The notes: generated from the sequence alone by a model not told the origin. Shown: positions 23,501 through 27,566, numbered from the stretch's first letter. The stretch: 64,000 nt of DNA from Sphingobacteriales bacterium (GCA_021297855.1 JAJTHM010000063.1:203-64202); one strand, 5' to 3'. A program made the numbers and translations.

Positions 23501-24460
23501 GTGGTTTTGAAATATAGATTCTTATCTGCTTTAACTGTGCTTAGCACGACGACAGCTACCTATTCTGTGAGTGGCAATGTAATTACTTGGAATTTAGGTA
23601 CTCTGGCACCATATAGTAATGGCATTAAATACGTCAATTTCCAAACCCCAACTAGTCTAGCATTAGGTACTGCCGTAGTAGATAGTGTATGGATAGAGCC
23701 TGCAGGCGGCGATTGTGACCAAAGCAATAACTCAGCTACATTTAATGATACCTGCGTAGGTAGTTATGACCCGAATGATAAGGCCGCTTCTCCAGCCAAT
23801 GAAATGGCACCTAGTGTGAAAACACTAGACTATTTGATTCGATTCCAAAATACAGGAACAGCGCCTGCACATAATGTGAGAATTGAAGATAAGATTGACG
23901 ATAACTTTGAAAAAGCTTCATTAAAAGTGAATGATTACTCACACCCAATGGAATATTACTTCGATGACAATGGTAAAATCTACTTCGAATTCCCGAATAT
24001 CATGCTACCAGATAGTGGTACAGACTATGAGGCGAGTCAAGGTTATGTTTCCTATACTATTCAGTTAAAAGATAATTTACCACTAGGCACTAAGTTGAAA
24101 AATACAGCAGAGATTTACTTCGACTTCAATGAACCGATTATCACCAACACGACAGTCAATACGATTGTACTCAAATCGAGCAGTGGAGTGAAAACGGAAG
24201 TGGATGGCTTGAATGTATCCATTTATCCAAATCCTACACAGAATATAGCTACAATAGAGGTCAATCTAGACAAGGCAAGTAAATTGTCTTATACTTTATT
24301 CAATATTCAAGGTAAACTGATAAGACAAGAAGAATTGTCTAACAAAGCGATAGGAAATGTCAAACAAGAAATCAACTTGGAAGCACTGAATTCTGGCATC
24401 TACATTCTCAACCTATCTATCAATGGCAAAGAGACTTCATTGAAAGTAGTCAAGGAATAA
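20558..24460 (+). CDS. large T9SS-secreted multidomain surface protein (GEVED, PKD-like repeats, Kazal-like module, conserved-repeat domain, T9SS C-terminal sorting domain)
   Basis: Signal peptide MKKLILLTLIVLLGWKTTDAQ. GEVED-like DGETEDYKVQV. Repeated W.FGDG..S....P.H.Y PKD signatures. Kazal-like PVCGCDTITYKNTCLASRSG (about 22960-23070). SYDPNDK...IRFQNTGTAPA. C-terminal VSIYPNPTQN...GIYILNLSINGK...KVVKE. Confidence 0.85.
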   Translation: MKKLILLTLIVLLGWKTTDAQYCTSKAKVNSVHEITFAAIYSSSGPLSNTTPCNSLIGSIIHTAAGNSVAGSYSDFTTTSIIVPKLRKGNVHTITVSSTANCTSKLSGGIRVAYFDWNADGDFIDSNEKYVIDAAYSTDSTVFKQVTVPMSSVTGMTRMRIVYRAVTSLSMVQPCDSNQFDGETEDYKVQVIDCSANQLTLIPGTSNYMTASMYLNDTTVTFTYQWKRNGTILTSQIQPVLSYNPNDTGNYCVKVTSSNGCVYEACLYIGLGAPKAPKCSEFRNIFFTKNASTFIFATSGPATVPAPYTVKYNWTFSNGTSSTQKNPSVVFTTFPAWAKLKICIDSGTTTICCDSSMRDSIMNCTSNMYCSLTKVGDSLKVNVTGGTAPRTFSWNNGAKGEKIKAVASGVYTVTVTDAQGCTTTCSFTIGSASNPCLAYRYITYSQSGKNFNFSTGIPTGSNATFYWTFGDGSSSTQAKPYHSYASAGTYNVKVRFCLRDSMNNVICCDSTDKNVIAVTPLPCNVKANFKWTKLANGQVQFTDSTKPDTGNMYTYYWVFGDGTVSTQKNPLKTFATNGSKTVCLYVKKWMNTNNMYCMDTICKTETITNVSPCNRLEPKFTWTNTGGVYNFSNITNMTGFTLVGISYVIHNSNTTYTTANPTHTFTTNGTYTVTMTIVAFDVTTGLSCTKTVSKTFYVNTSLCGCFKAYNSFSRTGAMAHFTNLSQCIDTNTKYLYTFGNGDTSSQPSPNYVYSLPGLYRTVMHITKTINGVTCRDSFVRIIQITTANPCKDSGYVNNANLPCPPYISPVCGCDTITYKNTCLASRSGVKKFTLGPCPGDTNYVKICGYVYRDINKNCAYDTFDHALREITIKFNTTPVTYAYTNAAGYYQIYLPKGTYQISQVLTFRNPPVNQLCPASNAPITVAATTGGATYCNNNFYDTTSLCPDLAVGIFRVANITPGFISKKAVRYANRCAVPITGVVLKYRFLSALTVLSTTTATYSVSGNVITWNLGTLAPYSNGIKYVNFQTPTSLALGTAVVDSVWIEPAGGDCDQSNNSATFNDTCVGSYDPNDKAASPANEMAPSVKTLDYLIRFQNTGTAPAHNVRIEDKIDDNFEKASLKVNDYSHPMEYYFDDNGKIYFEFPNIMLPDSGTDYEASQGYVSYTIQLKDNLPLGTKLKNTAEIYFDFNEPIITNTTVNTIVLKSSSGVKTEVDGLNVSIYPNPTQNIATIEVNLDKASKLSYTLFNIQGKLIRQEELSNKAIGNVKQEINLEALNSGIYILNLSINGKETSLKVVKE

Positions 24461-24487
24461 TTCAATTTGAAAATTTGATTTGAAAAG

Positions 24488-24516
24488 CGGCTATCCGAAA
24501 GGGTAGCCGTTTTTTA
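24488..24516 (+). terminator. Rho-independent terminator of the adhesin gene
   Basis: CGGCTATCC-GAAA-GGGTAGCCG hairpin (9 bp with one G-U pair, GNRA loop) followed by TTTTTAT. Confidence 0.75.
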
Positions 24517-24549
24517 TGAAAAAATATGCTACGAATTGCAAAATAACCT

Positions 24550-24557
24550 TAGTTTTG
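24550..24557 (+). promoter_or_regulatory. -7 promoter box TAgtTTTG upstream of the tRNA region
   Basis: Exact TAnnTTTG match about 245 nt upstream of the tRNA. If used, the transcript would include the tRNA-like element. Confidence 0.3.
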
Positions 24558-24693
24558 CAGTCCTTTTGGCGAGATATACCAATGTGATTTATAGTTTATG
24601 CCAATAACTATAAATCTTACAGTGGTAAATACCGTCGATATCTATGTTTAGGGCAATGTAACGCAGTGAAATTGGACTATTACAGAAATACAT

Positions 24694-24776
24694 ACGGTAT
24701 TAGCTCAGCCGGTAGTGGCAGAGAAGGATTCGTATCCGCCAGAGGCGGACGGTTGGTTAAAGTCCAACACAACAAG
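24694..24776 (+). pseudogene. degenerate tRNA-like element (D-arm, long extra hairpin and T-arm present; no acceptor stem)
   Basis: TTAGCTCAGCCGGTAGTGGC resembles the D-arm of the neighbouring tRNA. Perfect hairpin CCGCC-AGA-GGCGG (24736-24748). Perfect T-arm GTTGG-TTAAAGT-CCAAC (24752-24768). The flanks cannot pair as an acceptor stem. Confidence 0.45.
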
Positions 24777-24802
24777 TGAAAACAACACTTAAAAATGTAA
24801 AT

Positions 24803-24876
24803 GGCGAGTTAGCTCAGCTGGTTAGAGCGTCGGATTCATAACCCGGAGGTCGGGGGTTCAAGTCCCCCACTCGCTA
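24803..24876 (+). tRNA. tRNA with CAU anticodon (elongator Met or lysidine-modified Ile2; not distinguishable by eye)
   Basis: Folds by hand as a cloverleaf: acceptor GGCGAGT/ACTCGCT (G1-U72), D-arm GCTC-AGCTGGTTA-GAGC, anticodon loop TTCATAA, variable AGGTC, T-arm GGGGG-TTCAAGT-CCCCC, discriminator A. 74 nt. Confidence 0.9.
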
Positions 24877-25153
24877 CATATAATCTTTCCCTTAATTTTT
24901 TTAATAAATACCTATTGTACAAATATTTTTTGAATTGTACAATATCTAAGTATGGTGAAGTCAAGGATTCATATCCGCCAGAGGCGGACGGATGGTTCAA
25001 GTCCCCCACTCGCTACATATAATCTTTCCCTTAATTTTTAATAAATACCTATTGTACAAATATTTTTTGAATTGTACAATATCTAAGTATGGAGAAGTCA
25101 AGGATTCATATCCGCCAGAGGCGGACGGATGGTTCAAGTCCCCCACTCGCTAC
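24855..25153 (+). repeat. tandem array: tRNA 3' end plus two near-identical 139- and 137-bp units, each ending in a tRNA 3'-half copy
   Basis: The 23-mer GGTTCAAGTCCCCCACTCGCTAC occurs at 24855, 24994 and 25131. The two units differ only by T-run length (7 versus 5) and one T/A substitution. Confidence 0.9.
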
Positions 25154-25214
25154 TCTTTCCCTGTAACCTTTTATTATTGACTAATCTAAGTTTTGTACTT
25201 TTACTGAACTCTAT

Positions 25215-27566
25215 ATGATTATGCGTGTTTTTAACTTGCTAATAGTTTCCCTGCCATTGTTTTCCTTTTCCCAAAAGGTAGAACTGCATATAAAAGACTT
25301 CGAAACGAAGCAACCTATTATTGCCGCCACGATAGCCTATAAGAATAAACCTATAGCTAAGTCGAATACAGTGGGTAAAGCACTTATTGATCTAGAATAT
25401 AGAATAGTGATGGTCTATGCCATGGGTTTTGACTCTACAGAAGTAGTTCTTGGAGGCGCAAATCAAATTGTTTACCTATACAAGAAAGATAACAAACTAA
25501 AGGAAGTGGTCGTAAAGCCTTGGATTGACGAGTTTGCGAATAGTCTAATCAGAAAAATGATAGATAAGGCGAAAGATAATCACCCAGATCGACTTTCCTC
25601 CTATCAATTTTATACGTATAGCAAGTTTACAGCAGATGCCAAGGAAGATACTGGCAAGATGAATAACGATACTAGCAACATAAAAAAGAATACGAAAGAC
25701 ACCATTGATCTCAAGGAAGTGTCAGATTATATGAAAAATAATAAACTCTTTGTGTGGGAAAGACTGACCGTATTTAAACATGATAAAAGTCTTGGAACAA
25801 AAAAGGTGCTTTTAAATTCAAATATGAGTGGATTCAAAATGCCTATTTATGAACTTTTGGCAATAACGCTCGATGAGGTGAATTTTCTGCCAAGAATGTT
25901 TCGTTCGGATGCCTATAAAGAATACTATTTCAGACTAGAGGATAGCATGCAAATGGAAGGGCGCAAGACATATACGGTGGCATTTTATCCTTTCAAAAGA
26001 TCTAAAAATAAACGAAGTAGGCACGGTTATGTGAGAATTGATGCAGAGAATTATGGCTGTATGTCCTATAAGGGAACTACTAAACAAGGTTTCTTTGAAC
26101 TAAATAATCAACTCGTAGAAGGTAAGGTTTTCACAAAAGATATGTTTGTAAACTTGACTAATGCTATGATTCAGGTGGATAATTTAAGCACAAATACGAT
26201 TTACAAATTGACAGTTCAAAATCTTGAAGTGCCTAAATCGTTTAATAAATCGGATTTTAAAGGCTATGATGCTGAGATATCACCAAGCTTAAACGATAAG
26301 AAATCAACTGAAATTTTGGCTCAGCTTCGGGGAAGTGATAGCCTAGATCAAAGAGAAAAAAATACCTTTATTTCTTTGGATAGCCTCGTAAGAAAAAATA
26401 ATATCGAAAACAAGCTGAGACTCCTTCTAGCCTTGAGAAATGGCAATATAAAGCTAGGGAAATTTAATTTGGATATAGTGGATTTAATGCAGTTCAATCA
26501 GTATGAGGGTTTTCGGATGAATATCGCTGGGGAGACCAACTTTAGTTTCCACACTAAACTTTCTTTTCGAGGCAAACTTGGCTATGGTTTCGGAGATCAA
26601 AGATTCAAATATCAATTAGGAACAAGTTATTTGTTCAATTATCAAAACCAGTCTAAAGTTTCGATACTTTACGAAAACGATGTATTTGCTGCTGGTAGAA
26701 CCTTTCAGAGTTTATCTACCAAATTGGACTACTTCAATCACCTTGTAAATTTGTGGTATTTTGGTAATTTCTATCAATCTCATAGCGTGAAAGCTTCCTT
26801 CCAATCAGACCTTCACAAGTATCTTGAACAAAAAATTTCCTTGCAGTATGAAAATGTATCAGTTAAATTTCCATATACATTTCGTGGATTGGATATGACC
26901 AATACGAATTTCATGAATGCCACCCTAGAGTTAAATTATTATCCAAAAACAAAATTTATCGTTACCCCTGAGGGTAAATATAAAATCCAATCAAGGCCAA
27001 CCATTTTTAAAGTAAATTATGCCTACAAACATCCTCAAAATTCAAGCTTTAGCCCATATCACACATTAAATTTGGAAAGTCAAACCAGCATTTCCTACCC
27101 TTTAGGTAAAACAGATTGTCAATTAAACCTAGGTTATATCCAAGGGGATGCTTCTATTGTTTCACTTTATGAAGGCAGAGGGAGCTCCAGACGAAACTCC
27201 AACCTGATTTCAACCTTTGACTTCGGCTCATACCGATTTTTTGAAACAATGGAGCCGTCGAGTTTTTACTCGGATAGGTATGCAGCGATTTTCATTAAAC
27301 ATCATTTGCCAAAAATAGCAATGAATGCGAGACGTGATATTAAGTTGTCCTTGATATATAAGGCACTTCTAGGAGACTTGTCCCTGCCAAGTGACCACAA
27401 TATAGCCCTTATTGCTCCAAATAAATTATACCAAGAAAGTGGCTTAGAATGGGATAATATTATTGGTAAACTTCCTTTAGGTATCGGATTCTACTATCGA
27501 TTCGGAGCCTATAATCGGGGTAATTTTGGAGATAATTTTGCAGCTAGATTACTATTTAATTTATAG
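25215..27566 (+). CDS. DUF5686-like outer-membrane protein with N-terminal carboxypeptidase-regulatory-like domain
   Basis: 783 aa with a signal peptide. N-terminal small beta-domain (VELHIKDFETKQPIIAATIAY), then a long region rich in beta-strand/aromatic residues ending ...FAARLLFNL, the Bacteroidota DUF5686 layout. Confidence 0.6.
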   Translation: MIMRVFNLLIVSLPLFSFSQKVELHIKDFETKQPIIAATIAYKNKPIAKSNTVGKALIDLEYRIVMVYAMGFDSTEVVLGGANQIVYLYKKDNKLKEVVVKPWIDEFANSLIRKMIDKAKDNHPDRLSSYQFYTYSKFTADAKEDTGKMNNDTSNIKKNTKDTIDLKEVSDYMKNNKLFVWERLTVFKHDKSLGTKKVLLNSNMSGFKMPIYELLAITLDEVNFLPRMFRSDAYKEYYFRLEDSMQMEGRKTYTVAFYPFKRSKNKRSRHGYVRIDAENYGCMSYKGTTKQGFFELNNQLVEGKVFTKDMFVNLTNAMIQVDNLSTNTIYKLTVQNLEVPKSFNKSDFKGYDAEISPSLNDKKSTEILAQLRGSDSLDQREKNTFISLDSLVRKNNIENKLRLLLALRNGNIKLGKFNLDIVDLMQFNQYEGFRMNIAGETNFSFHTKLSFRGKLGYGFGDQRFKYQLGTSYLFNYQNQSKVSILYENDVFAAGRTFQSLSTKLDYFNHLVNLWYFGNFYQSHSVKASFQSDLHKYLEQKISLQYENVSVKFPYTFRGLDMTNTNFMNATLELNYYPKTKFIVTPEGKYKIQSRPTIFKVNYAYKHPQNSSFSPYHTLNLESQTSISYPLGKTDCQLNLGYIQGDASIVSLYEGRGSSRRNSNLISTFDFGSYRFFETMEPSSFYSDRYAAIFIKHHLPKIAMNARRDIKLSLIYKALLGDLSLPSDHNIALIAPNKLYQESGLEWDNIIGKLPLGIGFYYRFGAYNRGNFGDNFAARLLFNL

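Follow-up and report, generated by a model that had tools for sequence, protein, structure and literature searches.

What placed two nearly identical tandem units, each ending in a displaced copy of a tRNA 3' end, directly behind an intact tRNA-Met(CAU) gene of a Sphingobacteriales bacterium? The locus lies in a 64,000-nt stretch of assembly GCA_021297855.1 (JAJTHM010000063.1:203-64202), here called the window, and an original prediction made from its sequence had tentatively read the units as stacked attachment (att) sites left by serial integration and deletion, or else as a recently amplified module. We favor another answer, to which we assign a probability of roughly 0.7: the array consists of relics, devoid of an open reading frame (ORF), of a small cassette family that lives in the tRNA-Met(CAU) genes of Bacteroidota. 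A complete cassette would have three parts: (i) one gene for a single-domain GIY-YIG nuclease of 80-90 aa; (ii) a partial copy of the host tRNA-Met in which YTA-TCCGCC-loop-GGCGGA-C stands in place of positions 38-48, and (iii) a direct duplication that runs from the T arm to the 3' end of the tRNA and often takes in 40-50 nt of downstream flank, so that an intact tRNA would always be kept. The window holds two type A units, which follow the tRNA, and one type B fragment, which precedes it, all three without an ORF.

The tRNA-Met locus and its hairpin-bearing fragments

ARAGORN and Rfam both call a single tRNA at the locus, tRNA-Met(CAU), and Tandem Repeats Finder (TRF) reports a repeat of period 137 nt in 2.2 copies with 98% matches at 24855-25153, so that the tRNA and the two units of 139 and 137 nt stand as originally described. 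The same is true of the last 23 nt of the tRNA (GGTTCAAGTCCCCCACTCGCTAC), which a repeat search located at 24855 and, in displaced form, at 24994 and 25131; that search also aligned 24898-25016 with 25035-25153 at 99% identity. Each recurrence is preceded by AAGGATTCATA and a perfect hairpin, whose stem we refine from 5 to 6 bp, TCCGCC-AGA-GGCGGA, followed by a nearly invariant C. This hairpin, hereafter h, occupies 24974-24988 in unit 1 and 25111-25125 in unit 2. The T stem of the units, with GATGG facing CCCCC, can form three of its five pairs, and, as the original prediction had it, two differences separate the units: a T-run of 7 against 5, and a single substitution, here placed at 24956 versus 25093 (T/A).

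Unit 1 starts with ATATAA and continues with a diverged copy of the native downstream flank F1 bearing a 29-nt palindromic insert, the segment ATGGTGAAGTCAAGGATTCATA (24952-24973) and h, ending with CG and then GATGG plus the T loop through the tRNA 3' end (24991-25016). The 22 nt ahead of h, ATGGTGAAGTCAAGGATTCATA, are a decayed copy of the D-loop-to-anticodon segment of the tRNA (CTGGTTAGAGCGTCGGATTCATA), and the remainder of the spacer aligns with F1 plus the insert, which carries two TTGTACAA palindromes. Each unit is a 5'-truncated tRNA-Met pseudogene plus a diverged native downstream flank. For single-stranded DNA of the unit, the predicted fold contains both a 10-bp palindrome hairpin and h. 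The paired TTGTACAA palindromes could form the 10-bp hairpin or bind a dimeric protein.

Upstream of the tRNA is the third fragment, in which a decayed D arm is followed by GGATTCGTA, h at 24735-24749 and the T-arm-like sequence GTTGG-TTAAAGT-CCAAC; the acceptor 3' strand is absent. The element opens with the tRNA's own acceptor 5' strand, GGCGAG, directly after the -7 promoter box TAGTTTTG, and this opening has been split off by an insert of two repeats resembling miniature inverted-repeat transposable elements (MITEs; ~24575-24619 and 24617-24700, the second with inverted ends AATACCGT.../...ACGGTATT). Both halves of the insert have many copies, at 74-93% identity, in this genome and its congeners. 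At the position of the split GGCGAG, an independent metagenome-assembled genome (MAG) of the same genus, G009, carries an uninterrupted GGCGAGTTAGCTCAGCC... Since the comparison with G009 restores the GGCGAG start once the MITE-like insert is removed, the upstream element is identified as a 3'-truncated tRNA-Met pseudogene with h after the anticodon. In all three fragments of the window h replaces tRNA positions 38-48, that is, the 3' strand of the anticodon stem and the variable loop. The coordinates of the features are collected in Table 1.

Table 1. Features of the tRNA-Met(CAU) locus in window coordinates
Feature	Position	Strand	Evidence
-7 promoter box TAGTTTTG (Bacteroidota type)	24550-24557	+	read from sequence
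GGCGAG of the upstream pseudo-tRNA (beginning of acceptor 5' strand), split off by insertion	24568-24573	+	G009 comparison
126-nt insert of two MITE-like repeats, splitting the upstream pseudo-tRNA	24574-24699	+	absent in G009; multicopy
3'-truncated, hairpin-bearing tRNA-Met pseudogene (type B fragment)	24700-24775	+	sequence; repeat families D2, D7
Intact elongator tRNA-Met(CAU)	24803-24877 (3' end 24877/24876)	+	ARAGORN; Rfam tRNA, 66.9 bits
Unit 1, 139 nt	24878-25016	+	sequence, TRF, repeat search, fold prediction, alignment
Two TTGTACAA palindromes 20 nt apart, insert relative to native flank	24915-24942, repeated 25052-25079	.	repeat search, fold prediction, alignment
Unit 2, 137 nt, anatomy as unit 1, 99% identical	25017-25153	+	sequence, TRF, repeat search
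Native downstream flank F1 (TCTTTCCCT...ATCTAAGT)	25154-25191	+	repeat comparison; diverged copy in each unit

The flank copy in the units is only ~75% identical to the native flank, while the units are 98-99% identical to each other; from this we infer a recent exchange, and the two units are likely to have arisen by unequal recombination between the tRNA-derived direct repeats. The recent amplification that the original prediction allowed for is in this way supported. Neutral slippage during replication, or an error of assembly, with no element involved, would also yield tandem copies of such identity, and the assembly of G009 has a gap within its array. Slippage could turn one unit into two, yet it does not account for how a unit came about; two places distinguish the units, the independent MAG has the same structure, and the hairpin module is common to dozens of unrelated genomes. 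Given these two differences, and the same layout with at least two units in G009, an artefact of assembly is unlikely. We consider this the least probable of the explanations weighed here.

Distribution and geometry of the hairpin motif

The pattern CATRTCCGCC-N3-6-GGCGGAC was searched for in genomes of the order and across the phylum, with the reversed pattern as control. Within the order it was present in 27 of 301 genomes and 19 of 129 genera (45 matches, against 1 for the control), and across the phylum in 17 of 401 genomes, other orders and classes included (28 matches against 4). A T loop follows 2-7 nt after the motif at 58 of 63 distinct sites, only three sites being clearly unrelated to tRNA. 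The flanks of h match the local tRNA-Met genome by genome, whether this is of the elongator type (GGCGAG...) or the initiator type (CGCGGGG...), and in the window as in the relatives an intact tRNA-Met lies less than 400 nt from the hairpin fragments on the same strand. The recurrence of the hairpin module in tRNA-Met fragments is not due to chance.

Geometry was assessed in 65 fragments having both hairpin and T loop. The arrangement h-C-5 T-stem nt-TTCRANN is fixed in 61 of them, the palindrome is followed by C in 62, and the stem is preceded by TA in 64. The hairpin to which the original prediction drew attention is no part of an att core; it marks the cassette family as a conserved hallmark. 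A local origin of h from the replaced tRNA segment was considered and rejected, as the same hairpin replaces the differing sequences ACCCGGAGGTC and ACCCAAAGGTC. A second idea, that the CAU anticodon loop (TCAT) forms part of the recognition site of the nuclease, by analogy with the GTCAT flank of NTS repeats, is weak because CTT replaces CAT in fragments of G552, G369, G359, G530 and G436 and TATA is seen in others; the sole constant is the TA that precedes the stem. The specificity for tRNA-Met is better explained by homology between fragment and gene than by recognition of TCAT.

The hairpin-linked GIY-YIG genes

At most hairpin loci a same-strand ORF of 75-91 aa adjoins the hairpin, between the intact tRNA and the fragment. 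Type A loci have the order tRNA, terminator, ORF, 5'-truncated fragment; type B loci have the order promoter, 3'-truncated fragment, ORF, tRNA. The ORFs encode single-domain GIY-YIG proteins (Pfam PF01541, E 1e-14 to 1e-19) in which, among the relatives, the domain spans nearly the whole length; the nearest PDB structures, UPF0213 proteins and Slx1, are both weak matches. A maximum-likelihood tree of 32 mini GIY-YIG ORFs, 18 of them hairpin-linked, places these 18 in one clade (ultrafast bootstrap, UFboot, 93; Shimodaira-Hasegawa-like approximate likelihood ratio test, SH-aLRT, 89; 92% of bootstrap trees). The clade, in which different classes of Bacteroidota are intermingled, is separate from the ORFs that the same genomes carry at tRNA-Asn, Pro, Val, Glu and Leu.

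In a second sampling, a profile of the ORF clade was run on 400 genomes and the flanks of the best matches were read. The best matches carry h, h with CTT for CAT, TCCGTC...GACGGA (a compensatory change, in two genomes) or a T.G wobble variant, and other hairpins accompany the more distant ORFs, which lie at tRNA-Phe or tRNA-Asn. Variation in the ORF thus goes together with variation in hairpin and tRNA type, and the ORF clade, h and the tRNA-Met fragment are inherited together. Among the loci seen outside tRNA-Met is L154 (G143:C1 ~2371900-2373300), where five tandem units stand at tRNA-Phe(GAA); the TGA stop of each ORF lies inside the anticodon loop, an h-like hairpin (ATCCGCCGTGGCGGAA) takes the place of the D arm, and every copy is still called a tRNA by ARAGORN.

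These genes bear directly on the proposal that the units are attL/attR remnants, stacked by integrase-mediated insertion of phages or islands at the tRNA 3' end and by later deletion of the islands. The duplicated segment is indeed the tRNA 3' end, as at classical tRNA att sites, and tandem accretion of att-flanked elements does occur. The space between the repeated tRNA segments, however, is 114 nt here and less than 400 nt in ~60 homologous loci, and it holds nothing or one GIY-YIG gene of 80-90 aa, never an integrase or an island. Nor is there a match to the tyrosine integrase family Phage_integrase (PF00589) on the 64.7-kb contig, serine recombinases not having been searched for; the nine matches of the genome are on other contigs, and the absence of an integrase noted originally thus extends, for this family, to the whole contig. 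In type B fragments it is the 5' half of the tRNA that is duplicated, a finding for which integrase sites offer no explanation, and a hairpin with a 6-bp stem and a loop of 3-6 nt is unlike a recombinase core with its 6-8-bp overlap. The idea of a mobile-DNA footprint at a tRNA holds in so far as a tRNA gene was used and its 3' part duplicated; the agent was not a phage or island integrase, and the att explanation appears very improbable.

The hairpin is kept as a stem while its sequence is almost fixed. Such conservation might be read as that of a functional RNA, the units and the upstream fragment being co-transcribed with tRNA-Met and held under selection as a decoy, a processing signal or a terminator: hairpin and flanks are highly conserved across the phylum, the stem is preserved by compensatory change, and a tRNA unit that is strongly transcribed, from a promoter of the Bacteroidota type, contains the fragments or immediately precedes them. 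Against this, Rfam at E values up to 10 over 24000-25700 returned only the tRNA and nothing for the units or the upstream fragment, and ARAGORN, run on the locus as the original prediction had proposed, called the intact tRNA-Met(CAU) alone. The fragments are patchy, occurring in ~4-9% of genomes with presence and absence differing among congeners, and they are interrupted by MITEs and extra hairpins; their T stem is fully paired in only 31 of 65 cases and has three pairs or fewer in 23. The stem sequence is near-invariant rather than covarying, which suggests recognition of DNA by a protein, and published enzymes of the Ssn family do not bind RNA (Chenal et al. 2025, Nat Commun, PMC11893778). 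A selected RNA function seems to us quite improbable. We also rejected a split or permuted tRNA composed of the upstream 5' half and the downstream 3' halves, as the fragments are patchy, decayed and MITE-interrupted and an intact tRNA is present.

Empty sites, tandem arrays and loss of the gene

The presence of the element varies among close relatives, clean empty sites included. In G003 and G006 both sides of the tRNA are empty, the promoter being followed by the tRNA directly and no units being present. G004 has two upstream fragments; downstream, its tRNA is joined directly to the orthologous flank and the downstream gene, and this site is judged empty because the orthologous F1 follows the tRNA without interruption. 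G009 resembles the window, with the assembly gap in its array. The comparison of relatives that the original prediction had called for accordingly finds the units in G009 and none downstream in G003, G004 or G006, while homologues of the upstream fragment number one in G009, two in G004 and none in G003 or G006. The promoter box stands directly before the intact tRNA in G003 and G006 and before the 5' fragment in G004 and G009.

The search for further copies of the unit, also proposed there, recovered its spacer in G009 but no island among ~60 comparable loci. A search of the whole genome and 40 relatives found the spacer only in G009, which was likewise the only match among genome contigs for an exact 47-mer of the unit; a 24-mer had no match in metagenome contigs. 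Metagenome contigs do contain ORF-bearing type A cassettes at elongator tRNA-Met genes, and their junction, GGATTCATA-h-CGG-GGGTTCAAGTCCCCC, differs from that of the window, GGATTCATA-h-CGG-ATGGTTCAAGTCCCCC, only in the first two bases of the T stem.

How an ORF-less unit can arise is seen in G226, in which end-to-end alignment shows that a 132-nt unit equals the adjacent 348-nt ORF unit minus one clean internal deletion of 216 nt; the duplicated segment comprises the T arm to the 3' end plus 48 nt of flank. Tandem arrays are common: G109 has two upstream fragments and four downstream units, and G609 and G403 have five to eight ORF units. By the same route, the units of the window probably descend from ORF-bearing units through internal deletion. 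This ancestry is deduced from other genomes because the window has neither an ORF nor a remnant of one, and the units are classed as ORF-less derivatives rather than complete members since a same-strand ORF of the h clade is absent from the window.

Contig C109 of the genome under study opens with the only trace there of a hairpin-linked ORF, a tail of 18 codons; behind it come h, a T arm of the initiator type together with the acceptor 3' strand, then a terminator and the truncated start of an ORF. In G004 the corresponding initiator-type fragment bears ORFs and hairpins in a tandem array. An h-clade ORF of G004, on contig C10, is 85 aa long. ARAGORN finds only 30 tRNAs in this genome and no initiator tRNA-Met, in an assembly rated 99.97% complete; the remaining CAU tRNA is Ile2-like and lies on contig C100. 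Since C109 begins inside a GIY-YIG/hairpin unit, it appears that a tandem array of such units broke the assembly at the initiator locus, which was thereby lost.

The same genome holds GIY-YIG genes at other tRNAs. At C82:1-900 (minus strand) and C23:1-400 there is a tandem array in which a promoter and a tRNA-Leu 5' fragment interrupted by a hairpin stand before every one of the GIY-YIG ORFs, at least three in number; an intact tRNA-Leu closes the array. Further mini GIY-YIG ORFs lie beside tRNA-Val (C32), tRNA-Glu (C35) and the Ile2-like CAU tRNA (C100), their hairpins being different.

The promoter box of the window, TAGTTTTG, fits the TAnnTTTG consensus. The anticodon stem of the intact tRNA-Met (24829-24845) is closed by an A31.C39 mismatch, flagged in the Rfam alignment; the mismatch, like the whole sequence of the tRNA, is the same in the congeners G003 and G006.

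Possible mobility of the hairpin itself

Several observations weigh against a cassette origin of the units. The window has neither a GIY-YIG ORF (ORF listing and tblastn) nor a recognizable ORF remnant in the unit spacers, which by alignment consist of native flank plus palindromic insert, and tblastn finds no full-length ORF of the hairpin clade in this assembly. The sampling behind the tree is partly circular, most members of the hairpin clade having been reached through the hairpin pattern, and the link between ORF clade and hairpin is drawn here from sequence comparison. Moreover, the genome contains a MITE-like element of ~230 nt, 14 copies of which hold the identical hairpin TCCGCCAGAGGCGGA at sites outside the window (e.g., C23:17217, C58:6120, C126:866). 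This element has terminal inverted repeats (TGCTAGTGC..TTACCAC / GTGGTAAG..GTACTAGCA) and nested GC-rich hairpins, several copies lie at contig ends, and a canonical motif of the Ssn type, CGTCAT(T)CCTGCGAA...GCAGGAATC, is found ~20 nt away from h. Finally, the T loops of hairpin-bearing tRNA-Met fragments in metagenome loci L156-L159 have taken up, after GGGTT, either a second h or a related hairpin, which suggests that the hairpin can insert alone. On account of the MITE-like copies and these second insertions, h may move without the ORF.

Taken to its full extent, this would make h an autonomous mobile hairpin, a very small MITE, with the GIY-YIG genes as separate passengers and the units never having held an ORF; several loci do lack one. 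On the other hand, the hairpin-linked ORFs form one clade apart from the ORFs at other tRNAs of the same genomes, and their divergence follows the variation of the hairpin, the compensatory pair change included. The constant position of h, replacing 38-48 in 61 of 65 fragments, would not be expected of free insertion, and the ORF-less unit of G226 is demonstrably a deletion derivative. As a complete account we hold the autonomous hairpin to be improbable, with more in its favor than a functional RNA has; as a partial account, a hairpin moving independently is still a serious rival to the cassette.

A model for spread

For the cassette we propose the following model, whose steps are graded separately. 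The nuclease may be Ssn-like, binding the hairpin as single-stranded DNA and nicking a few nucleotides 5' of it, within the tRNA-derived segment; this step is tentative, its odds being a little short of even. The nick could then generate a recombinogenic end homologous to tRNA-Met, leading to insertion beside intact tRNA-Met genes and to expansion of arrays, a more doubtful proposal. Recombination with intact tRNA-Met genes would explain both how insertion preserves a working tRNA and how arrays expand. More speculative still, and in our view unlikely, is that the units are non-autonomous partners of an undescribed class of nuclease-driven, homology-dependent elements, in which the freed end would invade tRNA-Met, the tRNA would be rebuilt and the ORF-less units would be mobilized in trans, as MITEs are moved by transposases. 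The units in the window are themselves probably inert; the partial hairpin-linked ORF at the unassembled initiator locus (the start of C109) could act on them in trans. The mechanism of spread is in all its steps a proposal.

Significance

The biological impact of the window's own relics, which look inert, is probably small. The family explains a recurrent annotation puzzle in Bacteroidota, the tRNA fragments and tandem repeats around tRNA-Met genes, as well as contig breaks that can lose essential tRNAs, here the initiator locus despite an assembly of such high rated completeness. It would also tie Ssn nuclease/hairpin pairs to one genomic niche, tRNA genes, with a fixed architecture, and the hairpin with its tRNA-derived flanks offers a concrete substrate for testing the cellular role of these minimal nucleases. 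If the nuclease-hairpin pair drives insertion, the cassettes would be among the smallest self-propagating DNA elements known, and the pair would be a new single-strand-specific enzyme and site for biotechnology.

Comparison with known systems

A literature search found no description of tRNA-resident bacterial GIY-YIG cassettes or of a tRNA-riding layout of this kind, and the cassette family, related to Ssn/hairpin systems, appears to be unpublished. Parallels exist for its parts. Integrases use att sites at tRNA 3' ends, and att-flanked elements such as cis-mobilizable elements (CIMEs) accrete in tandem. The units share with them the direct repeat of the tRNA 3' part, the preservation of the intact tRNA and the stacking of several units; they differ in having no integrase or island, in their size of 60-400 nt, in the duplications of the 5' half and in the replacement of positions 38-48 by h.

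In fungal mitochondria, mobile GIY-YIG ORFs of the Allomyces atp6 type bring along a duplicate of their host gene's 3' end. As in the cassette, a small GIY-YIG ORF sits at the end of a host gene whose 3' end is duplicated or replaced while the gene remains functional. The hosts there, in contrast, are protein-coding organellar genes; to our knowledge, no signature hairpin is involved and no tandem ORF-less relics have been reported for them.

SegB, in the tRNA gene cluster of phage T4, is a free-standing GIY-YIG homing endonuclease of T-even phages (PMC2330249). The likeness lies in a GIY-YIG gene that is situated among tRNA genes and inherited with flanking tRNA sequence. Seg proteins, however, have a DNA-binding domain and cut the double-stranded DNA of the endonuclease-free allele, whereas the ORFs described here are bare catalytic domains; and Seg loci are not known to carry the partial tRNA duplications with a hairpin that the cassettes create. 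SegB is a looser parallel than Ssn.

The Ssn proteins, ~94 aa long and consisting of a single GIY-YIG domain, are encoded by genes with cognate hairpin repeats at their flanks. Binding is restricted to the single-stranded DNA form of these hairpins, the cut falls a few nucleotides upstream of them, and recognition requires the sequence of the stem, nucleotides 5' of it and the C after the palindrome, the loop being irrelevant (PMC11893778). The cassettes match this in a gene of ~80-95 aa for a single GIY-YIG domain, at whose flank the relatives have a hairpin of 20-50 nt, formed by a GC-rich inverted repeat, with a 5' flank conserved in its orientation, a conserved stem, a free loop and a post-palindrome C. 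The ORFs are candidate members of the Ssn group (clade cd10448), and the window is without a nuclease gene. There are differences as well: tRNA has 0 mentions in PMC11893778, whereas here the hairpin is fixed inside a partial tRNA-Met beside an intact tRNA, and its stem reads TCCGCC/GGCGGA rather than TTCCCGC/GCGGGAA. The genome under study also holds canonical sites (CGTCATTCCTGCGAATGCAGGAATC) resembling the Ssn-related motif (SRM), which adjoin the hairpin copies in the MITE-like repeat. Among published systems, the Ssn nucleases and their SRM/NTS hairpin repeats come closest to the cassettes of the tRNA-Met genes.

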